A DNA stretch of 64,000 nt, taken from assembly GCA_030426085.1 (NCBI GenBank), contig JAUHYW010000003.1, positions 119,343 through 183,342 on the forward strand, in the 5' to 3' direction. Under the pieces are notes generated by a model. The model searched no databases and was not told the origin of the DNA. It worked only from the letters and a program-made list of their open reading frames with translations. A program made the translations under genes and the position numbers. Below, one piece after another: positions 44,245 through 60,356 of the stretch. Every line of letters begins with the position of its first letter. Positions within the stretch are counted from its first letter, which is position 1. This DNA is from a bacterium (GTDB taxonomy: Bacteria > Myxococcota_A > Bradymonadia > UBA7976 > UBA1532).

Positions 44245-46734
44245 GTGGCCGACGATCAGCGGCCCCAGATGTCAGGCGCGATACCGGTCGCCCGGCTCGA
44301 TGACCGCTACGCCTTGACCGATCGCACCGGGCACAAGCTCGGCGAGGTCCCGCTCGCGACGATCGTGGGGCTGATCAAGCAGGGGCGCCTCTTCCGCACC
44401 GATCAGGTCAGCAAGAACGGCGCGCCGGTGCAGCCCCTCGGCGAGCTGCCCGAGTTCGAGGAGCTCTTCAGCCAGCTCCTGCCCCAGGCGTTCCACGTCG
44501 ACGGCACCAACCTGCGCCCGGCCCCCGAGCTGTCGGGGCAGGCCGACCCCCTCACGATCGCCCGCCTCTTCGGCACGCTGTACCGCGAGCGGCGCACCGG
44601 GCGGCTGTTCCTGTGCGAGGCCGATCGCAAGCGGGAGAAGGTCATCTCGTTTCGCCAGGGCACCCCGATCAGCGCCAACTCGAACACCGAGGAGGAGTGG
44701 ATCGGCGAGCTGCTCATCGGCCAGGGGATCATCGACCGCGAGGCGTTCGACGAGGCGGTCGAGCACGCCCGCAACCACGGCAAGCGCATCGGCTCGGCCC
44801 TGATCTACCTCGAGAAGCTCTCCCCCCGCGAGCTGAAGCGGGCGCTGTCGGTGCAGGCGATGGAGCGGCTGCTCAACGCCTTCCGCATGACCGGCGGCAC
44901 CTATCAGTTCATCGCCGACGCGTCGGCCGCCGAGGACGAGATCCTGCTGCTCGCCTCGCCCCGGGACATCATCGAGACCGGGCTGTCGGCGGCGCTCGAA
45001 GGCCGCGAGATCAACGAGATCCTCGCCGGCTACGGCGACCCGATCTTCCGGGTCGAGGTGCCCGACGAGATCGCCGGTGACCTGCACGACGGCGACCAGG
45101 CGATGCTGCGCCAGCTCTCCCGGGGGCAGCCGCTCAGCCAGTGCATCGAGCGGGCGGCCAAGGCGGCCCGGCTGACCCCGGCCGAGGGCAAGCTGCGGGT
45201 GCTGACCCTGATCAAGATCGGGGTGCTCAAGGTCGGCGGGGCCGAGGTCGAGGCGCTCGAAAGCGTCGTGCACGAGCTCGAGAGCACCGACTTCTACCGC
45301 ATGCTCGACGTGCGGCGGGCGGCCTCGCTCGACGAGATCCGGACCGCCTTCGAGAAGAAGCGCGCCGAGTACAAGGGCGTCGAGCAGCCGGGGGACACCG
45401 CGGCGGTCACCCGGATGCGGGATACGATCACCAACCGGCTCGACCAGGCCCGGCAGACCCTGAGCGACCCCGAGGAGCGGGCGCTGTACGAGCGGGCGCT
45501 GCAGCTCGGGCTCGACTTCCACCAGCCCGAGGTGCGCCAGCGGCTCGAGCACGAGCAGCTCCTGCAGCGAGGGCGCTCGCTGCTGCGCCAGCAGAAGTAT
45601 GCCGAGGCGTTCGAGGCGTTCAGCCGGGCGGGCAGCCTCATCCCCGACGACCCCCAGATCTACATCGAGCTGGGCTGGGCCCGGTTCCTGGCCTCGGATC
45701 ACGGCCCGGAGGCCGCCCGGGAGGCCATCGCCGACGTCGAGCGGGCGCTGCGCCTGTCGAGCGAGTTCGACGACGCCTACGTGACCATCGGCAAGATCCA
45801 CCGCCTGCGGGGTGAGCTGGAGCAGGCCGAGGCCCAGCTCCGGCGGGCGATCGAGATCAACCCCCACAACAACGAGGCCCAGAGCGAGCTGCGGCTGCTG
45901 TTCACCCGCGAGCTCAAGTCGGGGCCCAAGCTCAACATCTCGTTCAAGGGCGGCGGCTCGCTGCTGCCGACCCTCGGGCTGGCCCTGGTCACCCTCATCG
46001 GGCTCTACATCGGGGCCAACGTGATCGGCGGCGGGGCCGAGACGTGGCCCGACGTGGCCAGCGCCCGGGCCGAGGCGATGGCCGGCGGCCCCGGCGGCAG
46101 CGACGCCGAGCGCGAGCTGACCCGGGCGGTCATGGAGCGGCTGCAAGGCGAGGTCGACCTGACCGTGCCCCCCGACGAGCGGGTGCTGGGCAACGTCGAG
46201 TACTACTACCTCGCCGACGACGGGTGGTGGTGGATCCGGCGGGGTGCGCTGTTGCTGATGGGCCTCATCGGCATCTTCGCGGTGCGCCGGGAGCGCTTCG
46301 AGGACCTCGCCCTCTTCGGCGAGAAGCCGGCCTGGATCATGGCCGCGCTGCCGTATGGCCTGCTGCTCGGCTTCCTGACCCCGACCCCCGACACCCCGAC
46401 CGCCGTCGGCCCGGCGATGGGCATGGCCGCGATGCACATACTGGCCGAGGTGGTGTTCTTCATCGCCTTCCTCGGCCGGGCGCTGCTCGACGAGCTCGAG
46501 GAGCCGGCGATCGCGATCGTGGTGCTGGTGGTCTTCTACGGCCTGTACCGGGCCACCTTCTTCGCCACGCTCCAGGCCCCGGGCACGCTGATGGTGTCCG
46601 ACATCCTCCAGTCGGCGGCCTTCGTCGGCGGGGTGTACGGGATCCTGCTGTGGCGCAGCGGCGGCCTCTTCGCGCCCTTGTTGGCCCATCTGCTGCTCAT
46701 CGGCATGATGATGGTGCGGGCGACGGTGCTCTGA
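44245..46734 (+). CDS. multidomain membrane protein: N-terminal domain + DUF4388-like + degenerate J-domain + TPR + C-terminal 6-7 TM domain
   Basis: GTG with GGAGG RBS. DUF4388-like region (LFGTLYRERRTGRLFLCEADRKREKVISFRQGTPISANS). J-like helix bundle lacking HPD (TDFYRMLDVRRAASLDEIRTAFEKKRAEYK...LSDPEERALYE). TPR helices (YAEAFEAFSRAGSLIPDDPQIYIELGWARF...). C-terminal polytopic membrane domain. Confidence 0.75.
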   Translation: MADDQRPQMSGAIPVARLDDRYALTDRTGHKLGEVPLATIVGLIKQGRLFRTDQVSKNGAPVQPLGELPEFEELFSQLLPQAFHVDGTNLRPAPELSGQADPLTIARLFGTLYRERRTGRLFLCEADRKREKVISFRQGTPISANSNTEEEWIGELLIGQGIIDREAFDEAVEHARNHGKRIGSALIYLEKLSPRELKRALSVQAMERLLNAFRMTGGTYQFIADASAAEDEILLLASPRDIIETGLSAALEGREINEILAGYGDPIFRVEVPDEIAGDLHDGDQAMLRQLSRGQPLSQCIERAAKAARLTPAEGKLRVLTLIKIGVLKVGGAEVEALESVVHELESTDFYRMLDVRRAASLDEIRTAFEKKRAEYKGVEQPGDTAAVTRMRDTITNRLDQARQTLSDPEERALYERALQLGLDFHQPEVRQRLEHEQLLQRGRSLLRQQKYAEAFEAFSRAGSLIPDDPQIYIELGWARFLASDHGPEAAREAIADVERALRLSSEFDDAYVTIGKIHRLRGELEQAEAQLRRAIEINPHNNEAQSELRLLFTRELKSGPKLNISFKGGGSLLPTLGLALVTLIGLYIGANVIGGGAETWPDVASARAEAMAGGPGGSDAERELTRAVMERLQGEVDLTVPPDERVLGNVEYYYLADDGWWWIRRGALLLMGLIGIFAVRRERFEDLALFGEKPAWIMAALPYGLLLGFLTPTPDTPTAVGPAMGMAAMHILAEVVFFIAFLGRALLDELEEPAIAIVVLVVFYGLYRATFFATLQAPGTLMVSDILQSAAFVGGVYGILLWRSGGLFAPLLAHLLLIGMMMVRATVL

Positions 46735-46750
46735 CGGACCCGACGGAGGA

Positions 46751-47188
46751 GTGAGCGACGTGGCGAGAGAGCGAATCCTGGTCGGTCAGGACGAGGCGAT
46801 CGTCGAGGCGGCCAGGCCCCTGGTCGCGCGGATCGACGCCGAGATCGACCTGGTCGCGGTCGGCGACGGGGCCCGGTGCATCGTGGCCTTCACCAAGCTC
46901 ATCCGGGCCGGCAAGCCGCCGCTGCTCGTGGTGCTCGACGATACGCTCGCCCGCATCGACGGCGAGGGCTGCGCCCGGTCGATACGAGCGATCGAGCGGG
47001 CCTTCGAGGCCGAGCCGGTCGCGATCCTGTTCTACGCCGACGAGGCGGCCGACGAGACCCGCAAGGGGCTGCTGGCGACGCTGGGCCGGGCGGTGCACTT
47101 GCAGCGGCGGGCCGAGCCCACCGACCAGCAGGCGCTGCGGCTCGCCAAGGCGCTCGCCCGGCTGCTCAAGCAGGTCAGGGGTCAGTGA
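46751..47188 (+). CDS. receiver (REC)-like single-domain protein
   Basis: (beta/alpha)5-like pattern with candidate phospho-Asp in LLVVLDDTLARIDGEG. Stop overlaps the next start (GTGATGG). Confidence 0.55.
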   Translation: MSDVARERILVGQDEAIVEAARPLVARIDAEIDLVAVGDGARCIVAFTKLIRAGKPPLLVVLDDTLARIDGEGCARSIRAIERAFEAEPVAILFYADEAADETRKGLLATLGRAVHLQRRAEPTDQQALRLAKALARLLKQVRGQ

Positions 47189-48065: not shown

Positions 48066-48287
48066 ATGAACCGCCTGTGGACCGCCGCCTACGTCAACCT
48101 GGCCAGCCTGCTGGTCGCATTCGCCGCCTTCGCCGGCTCGTCGCGCACCCCGCCCGGCGGTGACCAGGGCAGCTCGGGCTCCGAGCCGGCCCTGTTCGCG
48201 CTGCTGCTCTTCGCCGCGGTGCCCGGCGTGCTCTTCGTGCGCAAGGCGCTCGCCGCCCAGCGGGCCGACGAGGATCAGCCCCTCTGA
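48066..48287 (+). CDS. mini membrane protein (74 aa) with PEP-CTERM-like arrangement (SEP - TM helix - RK)
   Basis: AGGAGG RBS. MNRLWTAAYVNLASLLVAFAAFAG (signal-like helix)...GSEPALFALLLFAAVPGVLFVRKAL plus an 11-aa tail. High GC3. Confidence 0.45.
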   Translation: MNRLWTAAYVNLASLLVAFAAFAGSSRTPPGGDQGSSGSEPALFALLLFAAVPGVLFVRKALAAQRADEDQPL

Positions 48288-48394: not shown

Positions 48395-49291
48395 GTGGGC
48401 CTCGCCCTGCTCGCGCTTCCGATCCCGTTCTGGGCGGTGGAGCGCTGGCTGGGCGGCATGCTCGGCGGCGCGGCGGCGGGGCTGCTGACGGTCCCCATCT
48501 GCCTCGTGCTGGCGTGGCTCGCCACCCGCCACCCGGCGTGGGATCGGCTCTCGACGCTGCCCGATCGGCCGGGGGCCACCGCGGCGCTCGGGGTGATCGT
48601 GGCGGCCCAGATCGGGGTGCTCGCCCTCGCCGCGCCGTGGGGCGGCGACCGGTGGGACGCGCTGCTGCTCGGGGGCGTCCTGGCCATCGCGGGCGTCTGG
48701 ATCTGGCTGTGGGGCGCGCTGGGCTACGGCCGGGCCCGAGGCCTCGTCTTCCCGGTGGCCTTCGCCGGCTTCGCCCTGCCCTGGGAGCACTTCCTGCGGG
48801 GCGCGATCGACACCCCGCTGCAAGCCTGGACCGCCGACATCGCCCTGCGCGGGCTGCGCCTCGCCGGCTACCCGATGCGGTATTGGAACAGCTACACCAT
48901 CTACTCGCCGGACTACTTCATCATCGTCAACGAGACCTGCTCGGGCATGAACATGCTGGTGACCCTCGGCATGTACACCCTCATCTTCGAGTGGCTGGTG
49001 CAGCCCCGGATGCGCAACCGGCTGCTGGTCCTGGCGCTGGCCTTCCCCCTGGCGATGCTGGCCAACGGGGCCCGGGTGGCGGTCATCTACCTGCTGGGCC
49101 ACTACGGCGGAGTGCCGGCGGCGGAGGGCTTCTGGCACACCGGCAGCGCCTACGTGATCTTCGTGCCGGTGTTCTGGTTCATCTTCGTCGTCGACCGGGC
49201 GCTGACCCGCCGCGACCGCAGGGCGAGGGCCGCCGCCAGCAGCAGCAGCGCGCCGCAGAGCCCCATCCACCAGTCGCCCCAGCGCACGTAG
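48395..49291 (+). CDS. exosortase family protein (EpsH/Xrt-like)
   Basis: Eight predicted TM helices. Conserved active-site region VNETCSGMNMLVTLGMY (Cys). LANGARVAVIYLLGH (Arg). First canonical in-frame start is GTG 48395. C-terminal tail overlaps the convergent lnt by about 140 nt. Confidence 0.8.
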   Translation: MGLALLALPIPFWAVERWLGGMLGGAAAGLLTVPICLVLAWLATRHPAWDRLSTLPDRPGATAALGVIVAAQIGVLALAAPWGGDRWDALLLGGVLAIAGVWIWLWGALGYGRARGLVFPVAFAGFALPWEHFLRGAIDTPLQAWTADIALRGLRLAGYPMRYWNSYTIYSPDYFIIVNETCSGMNMLVTLGMYTLIFEWLVQPRMRNRLLVLALAFPLAMLANGARVAVIYLLGHYGGVPAAEGFWHTGSAYVIFVPVFWFIFVVDRALTRRDRRARAAASSSSAPQSPIHQSPQRT

Positions 49292-50670
49292 AGCGTCGGG
49301 TCGCTGCGCAGCCGGGCCTCGCCCCGCAGCACGCCCGGTTCGAAGAGCCCCAGGGCGCCGTGCGCCCGACCGCGGGGGTCGATGAGCGTCGTGATGCCCG
49401 CCTGCCCCACCCGCAGCAGCCAGCGGCCGGTCTCCACCGCCCGGATCGCCGCCCGGCGGGTCATGTGATCGGTGATCGGAGAGCGCCCGAAGCCGGCGTC
49501 GTTGCTCATCACGACCAGCAGCTCGGCGCCGCGGGCCGCCAGCGCCCGGGCCCCGATGGGATAGACCGACTCCAGGCAGATGAGGGCCCCGATCCGGCCG
49601 GCGGGGGTCGCGATGGGGCGCCACGCGGGCCCCGGGGTGAAGTGGGCCTCGACCCCCGGCACCAGCCGCACCTTGGCCTGACGCCCGATCTCGTCGCCGC
49701 CGGGCGCGATGGCCACCGCGAGGTTGTAGCCCCGCCCCTCGGCGTCGCGGGCGACGAGCCCCGCGATCAGCGTGCTGGTATCGTCGGCCCGGGGGAAGAG
49801 CCGGGCCCGCAGCGCCGCCGTCTCGAGCACCGGCGCCCGGACCGCCGTCTCGGGCCACACCACCAGATCGGGCCGGGCCGCGAGCGCCTGCCGGGTGAGC
49901 GCCTCGTAGGTGGCGACGACGTCCCGCATCGCCGCCGGATCGGCCTGCGCCGCCCGGTACTGGGCGTTGGCCAGCCCGCCCTGCACCCCGGCCACGGTGA
50001 TCGTGCGCTCGCCCAGCGGCGGCGGCGCGACGACCCCGGCGACGCCGACCAGCCCGATGAACCCCGCCGCGCCCAGCGCCGCCGGCCGGTGCGAGCGGCC
50101 GACGAAGGCGAGGTGCCACACGACGCTGCCGCAGAGCGCCAGGAGCGTGCTGACCCCCAGCCCGCCGGTGTGCGGGGCCAGGGCCAGCCACGGCCGCAGC
50201 CACCCGACGTCGGCGATCCCGCCCACGTAGCTCGCCGGCATCGACAGCGGCCCGATCGTCCGGATCCACTCGGTCAGGGCCCAGACCAGCGCCGGCAGCG
50301 CCACGTCGATGGCCTTGCCCGCCGGGCCGGCGACGCGGCCCCACAAGAGGCGCATCAGCAGGCCGTAGATGACCATCTGGCTGCCGGTGTATAGGCTGAA
50401 CGCCACCAGGATCCAGGCGCCGTAGTCGAGGATGCCGTAGATGTGGGCCCCGCCGAGCACGCCCACGAGGCCCCCGAGCAGCGCCGCCTGCGTCGCCGAG
50501 CGGGCGCCCCACAGCGCGCACAGCAGCGGCACGTTGGCCACCAGCGCCAGCGGGCCGAAGTAGATGAACGCCGCGCCGTTGAGCAGGCCGGAGAGCGCCG
50601 CCAGCGCCCAGCGGGCCTCGGCGCAGAGGGCCGGCGCCCAGCGGCCGGCGTGGGTGGGGGCGACGATCAT
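49150..50670 (-). CDS. lnt: apolipoprotein N-acyltransferase
   Basis: N-terminal polytopic domain plus CN-hydrolase domain with E/K/C triad (VVWPETA ... K ... LICLESVYP). C-terminal TM helix. Confidence 0.85.
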   Translation of the reverse strand: MIVAPTHAGRWAPALCAEARWALAALSGLLNGAAFIYFGPLALVANVPLLCALWGARSATQAALLGGLVGVLGGAHIYGILDYGAWILVAFSLYTGSQMVIYGLLMRLLWGRVAGPAGKAIDVALPALVWALTEWIRTIGPLSMPASYVGGIADVGWLRPWLALAPHTGGLGVSTLLALCGSVVWHLAFVGRSHRPAALGAAGFIGLVGVAGVVAPPPLGERTITVAGVQGGLANAQYRAAQADPAAMRDVVATYEALTRQALAARPDLVVWPETAVRAPVLETAALRARLFPRADDTSTLIAGLVARDAEGRGYNLAVAIAPGGDEIGRQAKVRLVPGVEAHFTPGPAWRPIATPAGRIGALICLESVYPIGARALAARGAELLVVMSNDAGFGRSPITDHMTRRAAIRAVETGRWLLRVGQAGITTLIDPRGRAHGALGLFEPGVLRGEARLRSDPTLYVRWGDWWMGLCGALLLLAAALALRSRRVSARSTTKMNQNTGTKIT

Positions 50671-50674
50671 GGGG

Positions 50675-51184
50675 TCACCACGGGGGCTCCCGGGCGCCGA
50701 TCAGGGCCAGATCGACCGCCGCCGGGGGCAGCGCGCCCTCGGGGATGCGCACCACGCCCACGCCGGGGACCAGCGCCACCGGATCCACGCCGAAGAGCCC
50801 GATCAGGAGCTGAGGTCCGTCGGCGGTGAGCCGCAGCCGGGGCGGGGCGCCGGTCCAGCGGTCGGCGGTGTGCGGCCGGGTCTCGAGGCCCAGGCCGTCG
50901 AGCAGCGCGGTCCAGCCGGCGGCGTCGGCGGGCGCCGGGCCGCGCGGCGGCGGGTGATCGGGCGCGTAGCGGGCGTGGATCTCGGCGGGCAGGCTCAGCG
51001 CGGGGCGGGGGTCGACCACCGCCCCCAGGGGCGCGGCGTAGGGGCTGTGATAGCTGCGGTACAGGCCCTCGACGGTGTAGTCGTCGGTCAGCTCGCTGTG
51101 GGCCCGCACCGCCACGGCGCCGACCCAGAGCAGCATCAGCGGCCACAGGATCCGGGCCGTCCGCCGGCCCGTGGCCCGGCTCAC
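50675..51184 (-). CDS. hypothetical small signal-anchored protein (169 aa)
   Basis: GTG start overlapping the kinase stop (GTGA). Signal-anchor [19 protein letters not shown]. Ends 4 nt before lnt. High GC3. The upstream track ORF part is antisense junk. Confidence 0.5.
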
Positions 51185-54100
51185 GGGTCGCGGGCCAGCC
51201 GGAAGCCCACCGAGACCGACACCGCGTTGGGCGCCATCGCGTGGCGCGAAGCGGCCCGGGCGTGCAGGTCGAGGTGGTTCCAGCTCCCGCCCCGGCAGAT
51301 GCGGTCGGCGTTCTCCCCCTCGGCCCCCGCCGGGCTGACCGTCCAATCGCTCACGCTGCCGGCCAGATCCATCACCCCGTACGGGCTGCGGTCGGTGGGG
51401 AAGCTGCCGCACGGCTCGAGGTGGGCCGCCCCGGGGCGGGCGTGAGCCGACTTGCAGTAGGTCGGCTCCCAGGTGTTGCCCCACGGGAAGTGGCGCAGGT
51501 CAGCGCCCCGGGCGGCGACCTCCCACTCGATCTCGGTCGGCAGGCGGTAGCGGGCGTGGTCCAGCGCGCTGCGCCAGCGGCAGTAGGCCAGCGCGTCGTC
51601 GAAGGCCACCCCGAACACCGGCCAGTTGGGGTCCCACGGGATGCCGTTGGGGTCCCGCTCGGGGATTTCGAACCGGCCGCCCGCCTCGCGGAAGAGCATG
51701 CCCCCGCCGGTGAACAGCCGCGGCGCCCGCCGCCGGGCCTGCTCGATGTCATCGGCGGCAAGCCCGTTGAGGAAGTCGAGGTACTGCCGCCCGCTGACCG
51801 GCAGCCGGGAGAGGCAGAAGTCGGCCACCTCGACGGTCTGCCGGGGCAGGCCCCACGAGGCGAGGCGGTCGCCGCCGATGGTCTTCGGGCCGCCCGGGAT
51901 GTAGACGAAGCCGGCCCCCAGCGCGGCCTCGGTGCGCATGCGCACCGTCACCTCGGCCTCGCCCAGCCGCTCGATGCGCACCGGCACCTGGGTGTCGCGC
52001 AGGCCGGGGGCCCGCAGCACGAGCAGGTAGTTGCCCATCGGCAGCGGGTCGACGACCACCGGGGTCCGCCCCAGGTCGCGCCCGTTCTGGGGGGTGAGGA
52101 TCTTGTCGATCTCGACGTAGTCGAACAGCACCGCCCGGGCGCCGGGGGGGTCGGTCTCGACCTGAAGCCGCCCGTCGCCCCGCAGCAGCTCGGCGTAGTG
52201 CCCGGTGTCGACCCCCCGCAGCACGGTCTCGTACTGCACCATCGCCGGCCGGTCGTCCTCGTGCTCGGCTTGCAGGAACCCGCCCCAGTAGAGCTGGCAC
52301 AGCCCCTCGCGGGCCTCGGCGTCGTCCGGGTCGCAGACCAGCGCCTGGCGGAAGCTCTGGCCGGCGCGGGTGAAGCTCTCCACCCGCTCCCGGCGGGCGT
52401 GGTCGAGGTGCTGCTGCGCGTCCCACAGCGGCCGCCGCTTCTCGGCCCCGGCCCACGGGGCCAGCCGCAGCCGCTGGTTCTCGACCTCGGCCATGAGCCG
52501 CTCGACCGCCCGGGTGTGGGCCCGGTAGTCGTCGACGTGGCCCTTGGCGGTGGTCGTGTGGCGCCGGGCCTCCTTGCGCTGCCGCTCCAGCTCCATCGCG
52601 CCCTCGAGGAAGCGCTGCAAGTCGGCGTGCACGTCGAGCACCGAGCGGTAGCGCTGCTCGATGTCCTTGGCCAGGCAGCGCATCGCGATGGCCTCGAGCT
52701 CGGCCGGGATCTCGCGGGCCGGGGCCCGCTTGCGGGGGGGGATGACCCGCTCGCGCAGCATCTTGCGGATGATCGCCCGCGCGTCGCGCCCGGTGTAGGG
52801 CGGCCGCAGGGTCAGGATCTCGTAGAGGATGGCCCCGAGGCTGTAGATGTCGGAGCGCTCGTCGACCTCGTCGAGGTTGCCCAGCGCCAGCTCGGGCGGC
52901 ATGTAGCCCGGGGTGCCGATGACCTCGCCGTGGCGGGTCGCCCACCGGCTCATGCCCGCCCGGTGGCTCTGGATGCCGTCCTCCACCGCCCGCCGGGGCA
53001 GGATCTTGGCCAGCCCCCAGTCCATGACCAGGATCTCGCCGAAGTCGCCGAACATGATGTTGCTCGGCTTGAGGTCGCGGTGCACGACGTGGCGGCTGTG
53101 GGCGTAGGCGATGCCCATGCACACCTGCTGGAAGCTCGTCAGCAGCCGGTTGCGGCCGAACTCGGCCTCGATGTCGGCGTCGCCCCGGCGCAGCCCCTTG
53201 AGCACGTCCCGCAGGGTGACGCCCTGCACCAGCTTCATCGTGAAGTAGAGCTGGCCGTCCTTGTGCCGCCCGAGGTCGTAGACCGGCACGATGTTGGGGT
53301 GCTGGAGCTGGCCGGTGATCTGGGCCTCTTCGGTGAAGCGGAGCTGCAGCCCGAGCTGCTCGTCCTTGCCCTTGATGAGCAGCTTCATGGCCACGGCCCG
53401 GTCGATGTTCTGGTCCCGGGCCTCGATCACCCGGCCCATGCCGCCCTTGGCGATCAGGCCGCCGAGCTCGTAGCGGGTCGCGCTCTGGTGCAGGGTCGGC
53501 AGCACGTCGCTGCGCCGGTCCCGCTCCCGCTCGGCGGTCTTCGGGCGGCGGTCGACGACGTCGAACGGCACCCCCCCGGGGCTCGGCGCGCGCTCGGGCT
53601 CGCCGGACATCTCGTCGACCGGTTCGAAGTCGGCCGAGGAGCCGAAGCCCGACCCCAGGTCGGAGACCGAGCGCTCCTGCTTGGAGACGTGGTCCGAGAC
53701 GAGCAGGTCGCCCCCGTCGGCCGGCCTCTCGATCTGGGGCAGCGCGCCCGACTGGGGCCGGATCCGACCCACCGGCAGCGCGTCGGGCAGCTCGTCGAAG
53801 CCGTCGTCGGTGCCGAACGCCCGGTAGGCGGCGAAGGGGTCGTCCGCCGAGTCGAGCCCGTCGGTCGCCGCGCTCTCGGCGGCGGCCCCCTCGAACAGGA
53901 AGTGCCCGTCGCCCACGTCGAGCAGCGCCTCGAGGTCGTCGTCGAGCGCCGGACTGCCCGCCGCCGAGGGCCCCTGGGAGACGTGGAACGGCAGATCGGC
54001 CGCCGGCGGGGGCCCGGTGTCGGCCATCGGCGCGCCGTCGTCCCACGGCAGGTCGGGCTCGGTGACCCGGCGGGCGGCGGGCATGAGGGTCGGGCTGTCG

Positions 54101-54915
54101 CTGTCCGGCTCGGGGCGCCCGGTCGGCTCGTCCGAGTCGTCGGGGCCCACGCTGTCGAAGACGTCGGCGTCCGTCGGCCCATCGAGCGGCTCGAGCGGCG
54201 CGTCGGAGTCGGCGAGCGAGACCACCCGGAACGGGTTCGCGCCCCGGGAGTCGAGGCCGTCGGCGGGCAGCGAGTCGTACTCGAAGGTGTTCATCGAGTC
54301 GAACGGTGATCCGAGCGAGTCGAGGCCGTCGTCCGACAGATCGGCCACCGGGGTGGTCTCGGCGCTGTCGAGGCGGTCGGGCGGGCGCGGCTCGGCGGGG
54401 GGCAGGATGTCCCGGCCGAAGGGCGCGGTGGCGGGTGGGGTGCCGGTCGGGGGGTCGCGATCGACCGGACGGCCGAAGGGTGTGGCCACCGCGGCCACCG
54501 GGCGCCGATCGGGGGGCGCGATGCCGGGGGTTGTCGGGCGGGCGGTCGGGCGGGCCACGCCGGGCGTCGTGGGCCGGGCCGGCGGGGCCTGGACCGCCGG
54601 CTCGGAGCGGCGGCCGGGCGGCGGCGAGACCGGCGTCGAGCCGGAGCTGTCGGGCCGGGGCCGGGGCGGCGCCGGGCGCAGGGCGACCCGGCCCGGCGGC
54701 GCCGACGAACCGCGCCGGTGACGGGGCGGCTCGTCGTCCTGGGCGATGAGCGAGGCGAGCTGGTCGTGGGAGGTCAACCCCATCTCGATGATGAGGTCGA
54801 CGAACGGGCGCCCGTTGGCCTCGGCGAGCTTGCGGAACTGATTGAGCAGGGGCTCGGGCACACCCAGCTTGTCACGCACCAGCGCGACGAGTCGGGTGTC
54901 GTCCAGGCCGTGCAT
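51181..54915 (-). CDS. Ser/Thr protein kinase with N-terminal T2SS-E N-terminal-like (MshEN-type) domain and C-terminal FGE-sulfatase (SUMF1-like) domain
   Basis: N-terminus [51 protein letters not shown]. About 380-aa Pro/Asp-rich disordered region. Kinase motifs ([42 protein letters not shown]). C-terminal FGE-sulfatase motifs ([14 protein letters not shown]...PWGN..., RGGSW). Confidence 0.85.
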
Positions 54916-54942
54916 CCCCGCCCCCCTCCGTGCGTGCGCCCG

Positions 54943-56187
54943 TCAGCCGGGCCAGGTCTCGATCAGGCGGTGCACCTCGGCGTCGGCCAGGACCCGGTTG
55001 CGGGCCTTGGCCTCGCCGAGGATGTAGGCCGACAGGCCCTCCCGGCGCTCGACGCCGTGCACCTCCAGCCAGAAGTCGACGTTCGACAGGCCGCTCATGT
55101 GGCCCACCTCGATGCGCTGCTGCTTGCCGAACTCACCGGCCGGCACCCCGCTGTAGATGCGGTCGGCCAGCCAGTGATCGCCCTTGCGCTGGGCCTTGAT
55201 CACCGCCGCGGCGTGCACCCCGGTCGCGGTGCGGAAGGCGTCGTCGCCCATCACCGGATAGTTCAGCGGGATGGGCCAGCGGCAGGCCTCGCTGACCGTC
55301 TGACACCACTCGACCAGCCGGGTCAGGTCGTTGTCGATCTCGCCCATCAGCTTGAAGTTGATCAGGATCTGATCGAGCGCGGCGTTGCCCACCCGCTCGC
55401 CGATGCCCAGCGCGGTGCCGTGGATGCGATCGGCCCCGAACTCGGCGGCGAAGATCGAGTTGCACACCGCCAGCCCGCGGTCGTTGTGCCCGTGCCAGTC
55501 GATGCCGATCTCCTCGCCGGTGCCCTCGATGAGGTTGCGGGTCCACCAGATGAGGTTGCGCACCCCGTCGGGCGTCGCGTGGCCCACGGTGTCGCACAGG
55601 CACAGCCGGGTGGCGCCCTTGTCGATGGCGTTGAGGAAGAGCGGCTGCAGCGTCTCGGGGCGGCTGCGCACGGTGTCCTCGGTCACGAAGGTGACCGGGA
55701 GGTTCTCCTTCACCGCGAACTCGATGGCGCTGCCGCTCAGCTCGAGCAGCCGGTCGAGGTCCCAGTTCTCGGCGTACTGCCGGATGGGGCTCGTGCCCAG
55801 GAACGCCATCACCTCGATCTCGAGGCCGGTCTTCTGGCTGATCTCGGCGATGGGCCGGATGTCGTTGATGTGGGTCCGCGCGGCGCAGCTCGGGCGGATC
55901 TGCATCCCGTTGGCGACGTGGTGCTCGGCCAGCGCGGTGACATCGGCCACCGCCCGGGGCCCGGCGCCGGGCAGCCCGAGGTCGATGGCGTCGATGCCCA
56001 GCGCCTCTTCGAGCTCGAGGATCTTGAGCTTGGCCGCCAGCGGAGGGTCGGTGATCGAGGGCCCCTGGATGCCGTCGCGCAGGGTCTCGTCGTAGAACAG
56101 CACCGTCGGGGCCAGCGCCGCCCGGCGGCCCTTGAGGTTCCAGTTGTAGATCAGCTCGGCTTCCGCCGGTCGGCGCTTCTGCTTCAT
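54943..56187 (-). CDS. HMGL-like family protein (2-isopropylmalate/homocitrate synthase-like aldolase domain, no LeuA regulatory domain)
   Basis: DETLRDGIQ and WHGHNDRGLAVCNS metal-binding motifs of the DRE-TIM metallolyase fold. 414 aa. ATG overlaps the thiolase stop (TGATG). Confidence 0.8.
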   Translation of the reverse strand: MKQKRRPAEAELIYNWNLKGRRAALAPTVLFYDETLRDGIQGPSITDPPLAAKLKILELEEALGIDAIDLGLPGAGPRAVADVTALAEHHVANGMQIRPSCAARTHINDIRPIAEISQKTGLEIEVMAFLGTSPIRQYAENWDLDRLLELSGSAIEFAVKENLPVTFVTEDTVRSRPETLQPLFLNAIDKGATRLCLCDTVGHATPDGVRNLIWWTRNLIEGTGEEIGIDWHGHNDRGLAVCNSIFAAEFGADRIHGTALGIGERVGNAALDQILINFKLMGEIDNDLTRLVEWCQTVSEACRWPIPLNYPVMGDDAFRTATGVHAAAVIKAQRKGDHWLADRIYSGVPAGEFGKQQRIEVGHMSGLSNVDFWLEVHGVERREGLSAYILGEAKARNRVLADAEVHRLIETWPG

Positions 56188-57383
56188 CACACAGCCTCCA
56201 CGATGACCGCGATGCCCTGCCCCCCGCCGATGCAGGCGGTGCCCAGCGCGAAGCGGCCGCCCCGCTGCTTCAGGGCGTAGAGCAGGTGGGTCACGATGCG
56301 GGCGCCGGTGGCCCCGAGGGGGTGCCCCAGGGCGATGGCGCCGCCGTCGACGTTGGTCCGATCGCGGGGCAGGCCGAGGGCCTTCTCCACCGCCAGATAC
56401 TGCGGGGCGAAGGCCTCGTTGACCTCGATGACGTCCATCTGGTCGACGGTCATGCCGGCCCGCTCGAGCGCGATGCGGCTCGCCGGCACCGGTCCGATGC
56501 CCATGATGCTCGGGTCGCAGCCGCTCACCCCCCACTGCACCAGCCGGCCGAGCGGCGCGAGGCCCTTCTCGGCGGCGTAGGCCGCGGTGCTCATCACCAG
56601 CGCGGCGGCGCCGTCGCAGATGCCGCTGGCGTTGCCCGCGGTCACCGTGCCGTCCTGCTTGAACACCGGCCGCAGCTTCGCCAGCCCGGCGGCGTCGCTC
56701 TGGGGGCGGGGGTGCTCGTCGACCTCGAAGGTGACGCTGCCCTTGCGCGACTTCAGCTCGATGGGCGCGATCTCGTCGGCGAAGCGCCCCGCCGCCTGCG
56801 CCTCGGCCCAGGTGCGCTGGCTGCGCAGGGCGTAGGCGTCGCACGCCTCGCGGTCGATGGCGTACTGCTCGGCGAGGTTCTCGGCGGTGATCGCCATCGG
56901 CATGCCGGTGTAGCTGTCGGTCAGGCAGGTCCACAGGCTGTCTTCCAGCTCGGGGCTCTTGCCGAACCGCAGGCCCTTGCGGCCCCCCCGCAGGACGTGC
57001 GGGGCCTGGCTCATCGACTCGGTGCCCCCGACCAGCACCGCCCGGGCGTCGCCGACCAGGATCTCACGGGCCCCGCCGGTGATCGCCTCGAAGCCCGACC
57101 CGCACAGCCGGTTGACGGTGACCGCCGGCACCCGCTGGGGCACCCCGCTCTTCAGGCCGACGTGGCGGGCGAGATAGATCGCGTCCTTGCTGGTCTGGAG
57201 CACGTTGCCGAAGACGACGTGGTCGATGTCCTCGGCGGGCACGCCGCTCTGGGCCAGGGCGGCCCGGGCGGCGTGCACCCCCAGGTCGGTGGCCGAGAGG
57301 CCGTCGAGGGCGCCGTTGAAGGTGCCGAACGCGGTGCGCCGGGCGCCCAGGAACACGATCTCGGTGGACAGGGGCCTGCTCAT
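56187..57383 (-). CDS. acetyl-CoA C-acetyltransferase (thiolase II)
   Basis: Active-site Cys region VNRLCGSGFEAI. C-terminal GHPLGATGARI...CIGGGQGIA. Start chosen at the ATG giving MSRPLSTEIVFLGARRTA. The track start 57422 is an alternative. Confidence 0.9.
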   Translation of the reverse strand: MSRPLSTEIVFLGARRTAFGTFNGALDGLSATDLGVHAARAALAQSGVPAEDIDHVVFGNVLQTSKDAIYLARHVGLKSGVPQRVPAVTVNRLCGSGFEAITGGAREILVGDARAVLVGGTESMSQAPHVLRGGRKGLRFGKSPELEDSLWTCLTDSYTGMPMAITAENLAEQYAIDREACDAYALRSQRTWAEAQAAGRFADEIAPIELKSRKGSVTFEVDEHPRPQSDAAGLAKLRPVFKQDGTVTAGNASGICDGAAALVMSTAAYAAEKGLAPLGRLVQWGVSGCDPSIMGIGPVPASRIALERAGMTVDQMDVIEVNEAFAPQYLAVEKALGLPRDRTNVDGGAIALGHPLGATGARIVTHLLYALKQRGGRFALGTACIGGGQGIAVIVEAV

Positions 57384-57454
57384 CTCGGGGTCTCTCTCCT
57401 CGCTGGGACTCGATTGTAACAAATCGCCGCCGTTCGGATGGCGTCAGCGGCACT

Positions 57455-58528
57455 TCACGCGGCGGGCGGCGGCGCGTGCACGAACCGCACGAGCGCATCA
57501 CCCACCGCCCGGGTGCCCAGTTCACCACCCAGGTCGCGGGTCACCCGGTGCTCGCGCAGGGCCTGGACCACCGCCGCCTCGACCGCCATCGCCGCCTCGC
57601 CGTGCCCCAGGAACTCCAGCATCTGGGCCCCGGTGAGCACCATCGCCAGCGGGTTGGCGATGTCCTTGCCGGCCAGCGGCGGCGCGCTGCCGTGCACCGG
57701 CTCGAACAGGCTGACCCGCCCGGGGTGGATGTTGCCGCTCGGGGCCAGCCCCAGCCCGCCGACGAGCTGGGCCGACAGGTCGCTGAGCACGTCGCCGAGC
57801 AGGTTGCCGGTGACGATGACGTCGAAGTCCTCCGGGGCCCGCACCAGCTCCATCGCCAGCACGTCGGCGTAGAGGTGGCGGGCGGCGATGTCGGGGTACT
57901 CTTCGGCCACCTCGACGAAGACGTCCTGCCACAGCCCGTGGGCGTCGCGCAGCACGTTGGCCTTGTCGGCCATGCACACCCGCTTGCGCTCGTTCTCCAC
58001 CGCCCACTCGAACGCCGCCCGCACGATGCGCTCGACGCCCTTGCGGGTCTGCACCATCTCGTTGATCGCGATCTCGTCCGGCGTGCCCTGCTTGAAGCGG
58101 CCGCCGATGCCCACATACAGGCCCTCGGTGTTCTCCCGCAGGATCACGAAGTCGAGGTCGTCGGGGGTCTTGTTCTTGAGCGGGGTCAGCGCCGGGTGCA
58201 GCAGCCGGGCCGGGCGCAGGTTGACGTAGAGGTCGAGGCGGAAGCGCAGCCCGAGCAGGATGTCCTTGGCGTGGGCCATGTCGGGCACCCGGGGGTCGCC
58301 GAGCGCGCCGAGGTAGATCGCGTCGTAGTTGTCGCGGAAGTCCTCGAAGGCCGACTGGGGCAGGGTCACCCCCTCGGCGAGGTACTTCTCGGCGCCGAAG
58401 TCGAACCAGGTGAACTCCAGCGGCAGGTCGTGCAGCTCGGCGACGGCCTCGAGCACCTGCACCCCGACGGCGGCCACCTCGGGGCCGATGCCGTCTCCGG
58501 GGATGACCGCGATCTTCTGGACGCTCAT
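57455..58528 (-). CDS. isocitrate/3-isopropylmalate dehydrogenase family protein (tartrate/IPM dehydrogenase-like)
   Basis: IAVIPGDGIGPEV N-terminus. LRENTEGLY. GNLLGDVLSDL. Overlaps the upstream kinase gene stop by 4 nt (ATGA). Confidence 0.85.
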   Translation of the reverse strand: MSVQKIAVIPGDGIGPEVAAVGVQVLEAVAELHDLPLEFTWFDFGAEKYLAEGVTLPQSAFEDFRDNYDAIYLGALGDPRVPDMAHAKDILLGLRFRLDLYVNLRPARLLHPALTPLKNKTPDDLDFVILRENTEGLYVGIGGRFKQGTPDEIAINEMVQTRKGVERIVRAAFEWAVENERKRVCMADKANVLRDAHGLWQDVFVEVAEEYPDIAARHLYADVLAMELVRAPEDFDVIVTGNLLGDVLSDLSAQLVGGLGLAPSGNIHPGRVSLFEPVHGSAPPLAGKDIANPLAMVLTGAQMLEFLGHGEAAMAVEAAVVQALREHRVTRDLGGELGTRAVGDALVRFVHAPPPAA

Positions 58529-60276
58529 CGTGCCTCCTCTACGGGGGGTCCCGTCTCGTCCGGCCCGCGCTTGAGCGCGCCGGCGTACTTCAACATCAGC
58601 CGCAGCGCGGCCCGCTCGAAGGCCCGAGCGGACGCCCGCAGGCCGTCGGCGGCCACCGCCGCCTGCTGCTCGTAGCGCACCCCGTCCTCCTGCTCTTCGA
58701 GCTCGAGCTCGGCGAGGTCGCGCTGCAAGTCGGCCCGCTGACCCCGAGCCTCGGCCAGCCGCTCGGCCGCCTCCCGCTCGTCCTCCCGGGCGTCGGCCAG
58801 GGATTCGAGCAGGCCCTCGCGCTCTTCGAGCACCGCGTCGACCCGCCGCCGGTGGTGCTCGAGCATCGGCAGCGAGGTGTCGGCCACCGTGCGCCCGGCG
58901 ACCATGCGCAGCGCCGCGAGCACCCGGCCGTACTTGTCGTCGGCCCGGGCCACCGCCGAGACCGCCCGGTCGAGCGCGCCCGCCGCCTCGCTGGCCCGGC
59001 CCTCGGCCAGCATCAGCCCCTGCCGCAGCCGGCGCAGCTTGCGCTGGAGCGCCTCCCGCCCCGCGATGCGGATGCGGGCCGCGTCGTCGGCCTCCTCCCG
59101 CTTGCGGTCGGCCTCGCCCTGGGCCAGATCGAGCGCCTTGCGGGCCCGCTTGAGCAGCCCCCCGGCCCGCAGGACCTCGGGCGGCGGCGAGGGCTGCCAG
59201 ATGTTGGCCACCAGGTGCTCGAGGTTCTCGGCGAACAGCCGCCAGTCGCCGGTGTGGCCCGGGCCGGGCACCTCGGGCAGCGGCGCCTGACGGGCGGTGG
59301 CCCCCTGGGCGAAGCTGCCCGCCAGCTCGCGGATGGAGCGGTCGAGCGCGGCGATGACCGCCTCGGCGCTGCCCGGCCGGTCGTCGGGGCGCTTCTCGAG
59401 GCAGTTGTGGATCAGGGCCACCAGGGTGCGGGGCAGGCCGGGCACCAGCCCGTCGATGCGGGGCGGGACCTCTTGCACATGGGCCGCCACCACCCGGGTC
59501 GGGTCGTCGTGGGGGAACGGCGGGCGCCCCGCGATCAGATGGTAGAGCACCCCGCCGACGGCGTAGAGGTCGGTGCGGGCGTCGGGCGGCTCGCCGACCG
59601 CCTGCTCGGGGGCCAGATACAGCGGGGTGCCCATGATGAACAGCCCGGTCGGCTCATGGGCCCGCTCGGGGTCGTCGGCCGGCAGCGCCAGGATGCCCAG
59701 GTCGATGAGCTTGACGTGGTCGACGAAGCGCCCGTCGGCCGTCAGGAAGATGTTCTCCGGCTTGACGTCGCGGTGCACCGCGCCCCGCCGGTGCAGCACC
59801 GCGAGCGCCTCGCACACCTGGCGCATGATGTGGATCGCGCGCACCGGCGGCAGCCGCAGGCGCTCCTCGAGCTCGTCGAAGAGGTCGCGGCCCCGGAGCA
59901 GCTCCATGGCGAGCCACGCCCGCCCGTCGGAGAAGTGGCCCCCGTCGAGGATGCTGACCAGGTGCGGGTGGCGCAGGCCGCGACCCACGTTCCACTCGGT
60001 CTCCATGCGGGCGACCACCGCCGGGGCCTCGGGGATGTCGTCCCGGCTGACCTTCACCGCCAGCCGCCGGTTCGAGGCGTTGTGCCGCACCTCGAACACC
60101 TCGGCGGTGCTGCCGTCGGCCAGCCGCCGGAGCAGCGTGTAGCCGAAGCGCAACAGCTCGATGGGGATGTCGGCCCGGGGCTGGCCCGGCTGGGGCAGGT
60201 CGCTCAACGTTCCTCGGGGCGGTCGGTTCGCGCCGCGCGCGCGGGCGATCAACGGGTGATCGTTAGCACATCGCAC
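58525..60276 (-). CDS. Ser/Thr protein kinase with long C-terminal coiled-coil
   Basis: Kinase motifs (AVKV, HRDVKPENIFL, DLGIL, GTPLYLAPE) then about 250 aa of Arg/Glu-rich coiled coil. Track start is GTG at 60276. An ATG three codons downstream (60269-60271) is an alternative; the exact start is unresolved. Confidence 0.8.
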   Translation of the reverse strand: MRCANDHPLIARARGANRPPRGTLSDLPQPGQPRADIPIELLRFGYTLLRRLADGSTAEVFEVRHNASNRRLAVKVSRDDIPEAPAVVARMETEWNVGRGLRHPHLVSILDGGHFSDGRAWLAMELLRGRDLFDELEERLRLPPVRAIHIMRQVCEALAVLHRRGAVHRDVKPENIFLTADGRFVDHVKLIDLGILALPADDPERAHEPTGLFIMGTPLYLAPEQAVGEPPDARTDLYAVGGVLYHLIAGRPPFPHDDPTRVVAAHVQEVPPRIDGLVPGLPRTLVALIHNCLEKRPDDRPGSAEAVIAALDRSIRELAGSFAQGATARQAPLPEVPGPGHTGDWRLFAENLEHLVANIWQPSPPPEVLRAGGLLKRARKALDLAQGEADRKREEADDAARIRIAGREALQRKLRRLRQGLMLAEGRASEAAGALDRAVSAVARADDKYGRVLAALRMVAGRTVADTSLPMLEHHRRRVDAVLEEREGLLESLADAREDEREAAERLAEARGQRADLQRDLAELELEEQEDGVRYEQQAAVAADGLRASARAFERAALRLMLKYAGALKRGPDETGPPVEEAR

Positions 60277-60356
60277 CGTCGACGGCGATCTTCGCCGCCG
60301 ACCGGCGGGTCTCGGGTATCCTGCCCGCCGACCGCACCCGATACGAGGAGAATCCG

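Follow-up and report, generated by a model that had tools for sequence, protein, structure and literature searches.

A Hanks-type kinase with a divergent GSPII-type N-terminal bundle beside an lnt-exosortase gene block in Myxococcota

A Ser/Thr kinase of 1244 residues, encoded together with a small membrane-anchored protein and the apolipoprotein N-acyltransferase gene lnt in a bacterium of the Bradymonadia (Myxococcota_A), raises two questions: whether its N-terminus, which recalls the cyclic di-GMP (c-di-GMP)-binding domain of the secretion-type ATPase MshE, is a receptor for that nucleotide, and whether its position ties protein phosphorylation to lipoprotein maturation. An earlier interpretation made from the letters alone (the sequence-only reading) had raised both possibilities. 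The stretch analysed, here called the window, comprises 64,000 nucleotides (assembly GCA_030426085.1, contig JAUHYW010000003.1, positions 119,343 to 183,342, forward strand). Our analysis favours a catalytically competent, cytoplasmic kinase whose N-terminal bundle docks rather than senses, and which may provide an input to a module of Lnt and an exosortase; we give this overall picture a probability of about 0.55, which rests mostly on the anatomy of the protein and on the docking-not-sensing reading of the bundle.

Architecture of the kinase

The coordinates and gene structure given in the sequence-only reading were verified in the sequence, including the open reading frames (ORFs) and their tight junctions. 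The kinase gene and its parts are as follows.

51181-54915, minus strand: kinase gene, 1244 aa (ATG at 54915, TGA at 51181-51183; from the ORF list)
54736-54915, minus strand: N-terminal bundle, aa 1-60, a degenerate GSPII / MshEN_N-type four-helix bundle
53506-54735, minus strand: tether, aa 61-470, Pro/Asp/Ala-rich, disordered and of variable length (orthologue alignment and composition)
52648-53472, minus strand: Hanks-type Ser/Thr kinase domain, aa 482-756 (Pfam Pkinase)
52087-52647, minus strand: helical, weakly TPR-like spacer, aa 757-943, conserved in orthologues and distant relatives
51937-52086, minus strand: PEGA domain, aa 944-993 (Pfam PF08308)
51190-51912, minus strand: FGE-sulfatase-fold domain, aa 1002-1242 (Pfam PF03781)

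The ATG is preceded at about 9 nt by GGAGG, and the G+C content at third codon positions (GC3) reaches 0.97 in this ORF but 0.74 in the shadow ORF opposite it; genuine genes near the locus have a GC3 of about 0.97, at a local G+C content of 71-77%. Seven full-length orthologues were found (62-100% identity).

Three Pfam domains lie above threshold in the protein: Pkinase (PF00069; aa 482-756, E 2.5e-41, 142 bits), FGE-sulfatase (aa 1002-1242, E 4e-35, 122 bits), and PEGA (aa 944-993, 23.7 bits with the gathering score at 20.8, and 29 bits with the fragment alone). The three-part architecture proposed earlier is borne out for the kinase and FGE-sulfatase domains and had missed the PEGA domain; its spacer of about 380 residues measures about 410-420. 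This tether is rich in proline (17%) and aspartate (13%), is unalignable among the orthologues apart from short conserved motifs, and varies in length from roughly 40-60 residues (L011 and L013) to about 500 (L002), as judged from tblastn coordinates; a tandem-repeat scan of it returned just trivial GC-rich micro-repeats. It behaves as a flexible linker with short linear motifs.

The kinase domain retains the β3 lysine, the HRD catalytic loop, and the Mg loop, with K511, D614, K616, N619, and D632, the DFG-type motif DWG, and the segment GTPGYMPPE all invariant in the seven orthologues; because these catalytic signatures are invariant, the kinase should be active. Pfam matches to TPR in aa 757-943 are sub-threshold only. 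No transmembrane segment was found anywhere in the protein (the highest Kyte-Doolittle 19-residue window is 1.05), which predicts that the kinase is soluble and cytoplasmic and places the C-terminal FGE-like domain in the cytoplasm as well.

The best PDB relatives of that domain are ToxD (7spq, E 1.2e-20) and pFGE/SUMF2 (1y4j), the inactive paralogue of the formylglycine-generating enzyme (FGE); with the C-terminal half alone, pFGE is the best match (E 1.9e-8), and true FGEs do not reach the E 0.01 threshold and are off the list. In FGE the catalytic cysteine pair follows GGS[YW] (C336 and C341 in the human enzyme). The segment after GGSW in the kinase contains no cysteine, and the absence of the pair, which had been suspected as possible, is confirmed. 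Because no cysteine occurs where FGE has its two catalytic ones, the domain is no formylglycine-generating enzyme, and the simplest view of it is that of a binding module. An enzyme of another kind, an oxidase or a C-S bond-forming enzyme of the EgtB, OvoA, or ToxD type, would turn the protein into a bifunctional kinase-enzyme; the similarity to ToxD, a weak NCBIfam similarity to SenA, EgtB, and OvoA, and the very strong conservation of the domain among the orthologues speak for it, but all NCBIfam enzyme models are far under their cutoffs and the C-terminal half is nearest the inactive pFGE. EgtB and OvoA also need an additional DinB-like iron-binding domain, which is presumably not present in the kinase, and we consider an enzymatic role highly improbable.

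Many proteins that combine a kinase with an FGE-sulfatase domain appeared among the matches to the kinase in homology searches. This architecture is common in Pfam and has been noted as 'Proteo1' in an atlas of bacterial Ser/Thr kinases (bioRxiv 10.1101/2025.01.12.632604). The window protein shares with these kinase-FGE proteins the order of Pkinase followed by an FGE-sulfatase domain lacking the FGE cysteine pair; unlike them, it has no transmembrane segment between the two domains, its FGE domain is cytoplasmic, it has gained the N-terminal GSPII-like module, the intrinsically disordered region, and PEGA, and it has, in this clade alone, a fixed lnt neighbourhood.

The N-terminal bundle and c-di-GMP

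Within the N-terminal third of the kinase, conservation is highest in residues 1-60. The sequence-only reading had likened them to the MshE/GspE N-terminus, a likeness to be given up if hidden Markov model (HMM) scans for T2SSE_N or MshEN did not support it. Those scans fail for the window copy with both Pfam and NCBIfam: Pfam T2SSE_N (PF05157) gives no match for the whole protein at E ≤ 1 or for residues 1-76 alone at E ≤ 10. Because of this failure, family profiles and a fold comparison were tried. A profile of 7 sequences searched against all PDB sequences reached MshE (5HTL) at E 0.12; one of 11 sequences reached PilF at 6.8e-4, MshE at 3.1e-3, and PilF GSPII-A at 0.022; and one of 14 sequences reached PilF at 1e-4, PilF GSPII-A at 1.3e-4, and MshE at 3.9e-4 (query 11-59 against MshE 12-60). 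The E-values improve and the top PDB matches are exclusively GSPII/MshEN domains as the alignment is broadened, and the register is the same throughout, query residue i corresponding to MshE i+1. An hhalign comparison with the motif region of an 829-residue protein encoded nearby, which itself matches the NCBIfam model of the MshE-type c-di-GMP motif (NF053729), gave a probability of 86.7%. In the fold comparison the four-helix bundle of the AlphaFold2 (AF2) model superposes on the N-domains of MshE, PilF, or XpsE; structures of the PilB-PilZ complex (7LKO and 7LKM) are among the fold matches. The three lines of evidence agree. We concluded that the N-terminal module genuinely belongs to the GSPII/MshEN_N fold, though it has diverged, and is a remote homologue of the MshE/PilF/GspE N-domain; the earlier likeness holds at the level of family profiles and fold and is too weak for Pfam and NCBIfam.

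The family itself appears to be very narrow, because an exhaustive HMMER search of the N-domain profile against 1.84 billion representatives recovered little beyond orthologues and their fragments. Two repeat proteins in that search, P0123 (insect allergen repeats) and P0129, were rejected as spurious. The sole protein retrieved that was neither an orthologue nor spurious is P0127, a stand-alone protein of 139 residues with about four tandem MshEN-like helix-turn-helix repeats (e.g., RPFGELAVEMGFLSRDQLAIVVFEQ).

MshE of Vibrio cholerae (5HTL) and the GSPII-A, -B, and -C domains of Thermus thermophilus PilF share with the kinase this four-helix bundle of two helix-turn-helix repeats, its place at the very N-terminus, and its register. 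Unlike them, the window bundle lacks RLG...Q in both repeats and has no second (T2SSE_N1) subdomain; it is missed by PF05157 and NF053729 and is attached to a kinase, not to a secretion ATPase. It matches the class of 'MshEN_N only' modules catalogued, together with fusions of MshEN to Ser/Thr kinases, by Wang et al. (2016; PMC5013675). Stigmatella aurantiaca PKN11 (Pkinase-MshEN-UNK-REC; Wang et al. 2016, Supplementary Table 4) is likewise a myxobacterial Ser/Thr kinase with an MshEN-type module; in contrast to PKN11, the window kinase has the module at its N-terminus on a tether of about 410-420 residues, has no REC domain, and ends in PEGA and FGE-sulfatase domains.

The c-di-GMP-binding motif consists of two tandem 24-residue units, RLGxx(L/V/I)(L/V/I)xxG(L/V/I)(L/V/I)xxxxLxxxLxxQ, with a 5-residue spacer (Wang et al. 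2016; PMC5013675). In MshE the Arg of RLG stacks on each guanine, the backbones of the Gly and of the next residue form hydrogen bonds with it, and Leu residues pack against it; the terminal Gln of each motif binds the ribose-phosphate (PMC5013675). A gapless alignment of query residues 19-60 with MshE 20-61 gives the following correspondence.

MshE L25, window L24: kept
MshE L29, window R28: replaced
MshE Q32, window A31: replaced
MshE R38, window P37: replaced
MshE L39, window F38: conservative
MshE G40, window V39: replaced
MshE D41, window D40: kept
MshE G47, window G46: kept
MshE L54, window L53: kept
MshE L58, window I57: conservative
MshE Q61, window D60: replaced

When the register is extended, motif I of the window bundle reads RLV and not RLG. 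Of the c-di-GMP contacts, the Gly and the Gln of both motifs are replaced, as is the Arg of motif II. The 14-member family alignment shows practically no conservation at the Gly and Gln positions, although L007 and L008 keep LG in motif II, and the most conserved stretch falls outside the nucleotide-contact positions. NF053729 has no match in the window kinase, and 6 of its 11 relatives match it below threshold (best E 0.0039). The relaxed regular expression of Wang et al. also finds no motif in the kinase; this is weak evidence, because the same expression misses the HMM-positive 829-residue neighbour. The motif-II region of the kinase family ('RSL[SE]..', 'RPFV..') resembles that of PilF GSPII-A, a domain that deviates from the consensus at fewer positions (H33, S39, A41, and R62), shows no binding, and does not regain it when the consensus is restored (PMC12002112). 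By sequence the bundle is most similar to this non-binding domain, and it would also be functionally closest to it.

These findings bear directly on the possibility that the N-domain is a working MshEN receptor, the kinase converting the c-di-GMP level into a phosphorylation that controls Lnt and lipoprotein maturation. The fold and the remote homology to the c-di-GMP binders MshE and PilF GSPII-B favour such a receptor, as do the retention of some hydrophobic motif positions and G46, the existence of MshEN-kinase fusions, and the presence of a protein with a c-di-GMP motif 4.4 kb away, which makes c-di-GMP signalling local. Since the contact residues are lost, NF053729 (like Pfam T2SSE_N) is negative for the window copy, and the nearest relative by sequence is non-binding, binding of c-di-GMP by the kinase N-domain is unlikely, and the receptor account that depends on it is improbable in like measure; the c-di-GMP-sensing kinase suggested by the sequence-only reading is not supported.

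A better candidate for a c-di-GMP receptor is that 829-residue protein.

44245-46734, plus strand: 829-aa neighbour with PatA_N/DUF4388, DnaJ, TPR, and a C-terminal Rce1-like/CPBP membrane domain

Its residues 153-204 match NF053729 at 40.7 bits (cutoff 38), its orthologues carry PF02517, and it is conserved in the same neighbourhood, Bradymonadia included. The conserved neighbourhood therefore contains a bona fide MshE-type c-di-GMP motif, in a protein other than the kinase.

The preferred reading of the kinase bundle is that of a protein-docking module, by analogy with the PilB-PilZ complex. GSPII domains also serve as docking modules in GspE-GspL. Through the long tether such a bundle could hold the kinase near a membrane partner.

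The downstream genes and their conserved order

Three genes form the block downstream of the kinase.

50675-51184, minus strand: small protein, 169 aa, with an N-terminal membrane helix/signal peptide and a periplasmic alpha/beta domain of C39/papain-like fold
49150-50670, minus strand: lnt, apolipoprotein N-acyltransferase, 506 aa (TIGR00546 and catalytic triad)
48395-49291, plus strand: exosortase (EpsH family), convergent with lnt (Pfam PF09721, E 1.2e-38)

The stop codon of the kinase overlaps the GTG start of the small protein by 4 nt (GAC CCG TGA / GTG AGC, a GTGA overlap with GTG at 51184-51182), and 4 nt separate the end of the small ORF from lnt (TGA-CCCC-ATG); both junctions had been correctly described before. 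No sensible alternative start exists for the small ORF, the next upstream candidates overlapping the kinase by at least 55 codons. The 169-residue product is already public (P0131, 100% identical), and its closest relative (P0132, 88%) shares the start residue.

The small protein consists of a basic N-terminus, a hydrophobic helix, and a 115-residue domain that has a papain-like fold and, by the positive-inside rule, is inferred to face the periplasm. Its family is confined to this clade and has no Pfam model. There is no cysteine among its 169 residues and none is conserved in the family alignment; for this reason the protein is a pseudo-peptidase and cannot serve as an Lnt substrate, which would need a lipobox Cys. 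A Tat signal was also rejected, because relatives do not keep the RR pair (it is RL in L001). It is only 6-18% identical to the C39-like domain of HlyB (3ZUA) and to the C39 peptidase domains of PCAT and ComA transporters, and unlike these it is a stand-alone, membrane-anchored, predicted periplasmic protein outside any ABC transporter.

Lnt is assigned by the NCBIfam equivalog TIGR00546 (148.5 bits, cutoff 132.9) and matches the Escherichia coli and Pseudomonas aeruginosa enzymes (5N6H and 5N6M) over its full length; the Glu-Lys-Cys triad is kept, with WPETAV, K..LVP, and ICLE aligning with the catalytic positions of P. aeruginosa Lnt. Unlike those two lnt genes, the lnt of this locus always follows the small C39-fold gene and is convergent with an exosortase gene whose 3' end overlaps its own. 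All NCBIfam exosortase models fall under their subtype cutoffs for the exosortase. The overlap is 142 nt in the window (49150-49291) and roughly 40-120 nt in the gene calls of L001-L003, L086, L088, and L089, and this holds for every listed locus in which the exosortase directly follows lnt. No description of lnt preceded by a C39-fold gene and converging on an exosortase gene was found in the literature; a search for a bacterial Lnt-exosortase link found none, exosortase and Lnt together retrieving archaeal papers only.

In all 11 orthologous loci examined that had enough sequence (the window, L001/L006, L002 (L002/L003), L007, L008, L009, L010, L011, L013, L086, and L088), the kinase is followed by the small protein, lnt, and the convergent exosortase, and every one of these loci also has the N-domain. 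A lack of conserved gene order in relatives had been named as grounds against the earlier interpretation; instead the order is conserved in every orthologue examined. Identity to the window is 44-88% for the kinase C-terminal region in L006-L011 and L013 and 48-51% for the FGE segment in L086 and L088, and the gaps or overlaps between the genes of this order do not exceed about 70 nt in loci with gene calls. Kinase-FGE homologues that lack the N-domain (L004, L012, and L014-L017) have no adjoining lnt. The kinase orthologues are a handful, all from metagenome-assembled genomes (MAGs) of uncultured Myxococcales or Nannocystaceae.

Loci that lack the kinase, one in a Bradymonadia MAG (L087) and one in a further Myxococcota lineage (L089), still group a small protein, lnt, and a convergent exosortase; in L089 the exosortase gene overlaps the lnt 3' end, and in L087 a response-regulator gene lies between the two. 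The lnt-exosortase pairing thus persists without the kinase and down to 39% Lnt identity (L089). Because the module occurs kinase-free in these two lineages, the kinase appears to be a lineage-specific addition to an older module of small protein, lnt, and exosortase.

Three further plus-strand genes in front of the exosortase gene are listed here.

46751-47188, plus strand: receiver-like protein (pseudo-receiver), 145 aa
47188-47952, plus strand: Zn-ribbon and REC response regulator
48066-48287, plus strand: mini-protein, 73 aa, with a signal peptide, a short Gly/Ser linker, and a PEP-CTERM-like tail (GSEP-hydrophobic helix-RK)

Five plus-strand genes in all converge on lnt (829-aa protein, pseudo-receiver, Zn-ribbon/REC, 73-aa protein, and exosortase); the two receiver proteins, between the CPBP protein and the exosortase, are about 37% identical over the receiver part. 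The mini-protein has counterparts in L089 (9318-9491, minus strand; ...TPEP SLLLYAAAGALPLWWVF RRR followed by stop) and L087 (9854-10078, minus strand; APEP...KRR), which have the sequences of textbook mini PEP-CTERM proteins. In the window, L089, and L087 these proteins of 57-74 residues are encoded immediately upstream of the exosortase. The mini-protein is probably a dedicated exosortase substrate and would yield a very short peptide on maturation.

A role for the kinase

The upstream genes bear on what the adjacency of kinase and lnt means.

54943-60276, minus strand: four co-directional genes before the big kinase
58525-60276, minus strand: second Ser/Thr kinase
57455-58528, minus strand: 3-isopropylmalate-dehydrogenase (IPMDH)-like gene
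56187-57422, minus strand: thiolase
54943-56187, minus strand: HMGL/IPMS-like gene

The HMGL-like protein is far under all NCBIfam cutoffs for isopropylmalate, citramalate, and homocitrate synthases. With the big kinase, the small protein, and lnt these genes make up a seven-gene minus-strand array in the order second kinase, IPMDH-like, thiolase, HMGL/IPMS-like, big kinase, small protein, and lnt, with junctions of -4 (58525-58528), +32, -1 (TGATG at 56187), +27, -4, and +4 nt. Because similar junctions run along the whole array, the coupling-type junction between kinase and small protein is not special to that pair. No terminator-like site was found in 48900-60500, and a promoter/terminator scan was empty on both strands, which is uninformative at 75% G+C. 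The link between kinase signalling and lipoprotein maturation put forward in the sequence-only reading comes down to gene adjacency, and a direct functional tie of the kinase to Lnt is doubtful.

Three more Hanks-type kinase domains lie in the window, at about 1972-2637 (plus strand), 13011-13733 (minus strand), and 59332-60141 (minus strand). Four Hanks kinases in one window are consistent with the large kinome of myxobacteria.

The main rival to our picture holds that adjacency is meaningless: the kinase, one of many Ser/Thr kinases of myxobacteria, would belong to a long mixed operon and act on unrelated targets, for example in the upstream branched-chain/acetoacetyl-CoA metabolism, with the small protein and Lnt as housekeeping passengers. 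The array indeed brings together genes for metabolism, signalling, and the envelope, and all its junctions are overlapping or very short; thiolase and HMGL-like genes lie directly upstream of the kinase in several loci (the window, L002, L011, L086, and L088 have both, whereas L001 has just the HMGL-like gene); the window holds four Hanks kinases; and small protein, lnt, and exosortase persist where the kinase is absent. All 11 loci nevertheless retain the downstream block, even L008, in which the upstream genes are displaced by about 4.7 kb, and L013, which lacks them; among the 11 are loci whose kinase C-terminal region is only about 44-55% identical. The passenger explanation is possible, and we rate it well below our own picture.

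In the picture that we prefer, kinase, small protein, and lnt would be co-transcribed, as hinted by the 4-nt overlap, the 4-nt gap, the absence of terminator-like sites, and the conserved order. The small protein, Lnt, the exosortase, and the mini PEP-CTERM substrate would form an older envelope-protein-processing module to which the kinase adds a phosphorylation-dependent input, with the FGE-like and PEGA domains as ligand- or protein-binding input. Candidate targets are Lnt, in its cytoplasmic loops, and the small protein, in its cytoplasmic tail, which contains Thr/Ser and a conserved TGRR.

Several points weigh against this picture. The standard HMM libraries miss the N-domain, its fold match comes from an AF2 model built on 7 sequences only, and the docking role of the bundle is argued by analogy. 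R8-L9, D40, G46, L53, and I57 are retained, together with an invariant R36 beside motif II, and a relaxed or non-canonical binding of c-di-GMP by the bundle is possible. All kinase-bearing loci belong to one clade, so that the conserved order partly reflects shared ancestry; the module exists without the kinase, which means that Lnt does not need it; and the kinase has coupling-type junctions with unrelated metabolic genes on its upstream side as well. The source organism, finally, is an uncultured MAG.

A wider proposal takes the whole neighbourhood as an undescribed Myxococcota system of envelope sorting and lipidation, in which an Lnt-family acyltransferase cooperates with an exosortase and to which a Nannocystaceae-like lineage has added a dedicated kinase. 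Its parts would be the C39-fold protein, Lnt, the exosortase with its mini PEP-CTERM protein, the PatA_N/DnaJ/TPR/CPBP protein, and the receiver proteins; the degenerate GSPII domain would dock the kinase onto the system, and c-di-GMP (through the CPBP protein) and phosphorylation would control it jointly. We regard this proposal as speculative and, taken whole, unlikely.

All of the building blocks are known (Hanks kinase, GSPII/MshEN_N bundle, FGE-fold domain, and Lnt), and kinase-MshEN and kinase-FGE fusions have been catalogued; the kinase locus is a lineage-specific variant of known parts. What appears to be undescribed is the degenerate MshEN_N module on a long tether before a fully cytoplasmic kinase-PEGA-FGE protein, the strict pairing of that kinase with a pseudo-C39 protein and Lnt, and, in several Myxococcota lineages, an Lnt gene converging on that of an exosortase with a dedicated mini-substrate. 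The bundle would be a further natural example, like PilF GSPII-A, of the drift of GSPII domains away from c-di-GMP binding, and such drifted bundles may help to establish which features confer nucleotide binding on GSPII domains. Should the kinase indeed act on the module, it would provide a rare Ser/Thr phosphorylation input to the last step of lipoprotein maturation or to exosortase-dependent sorting.

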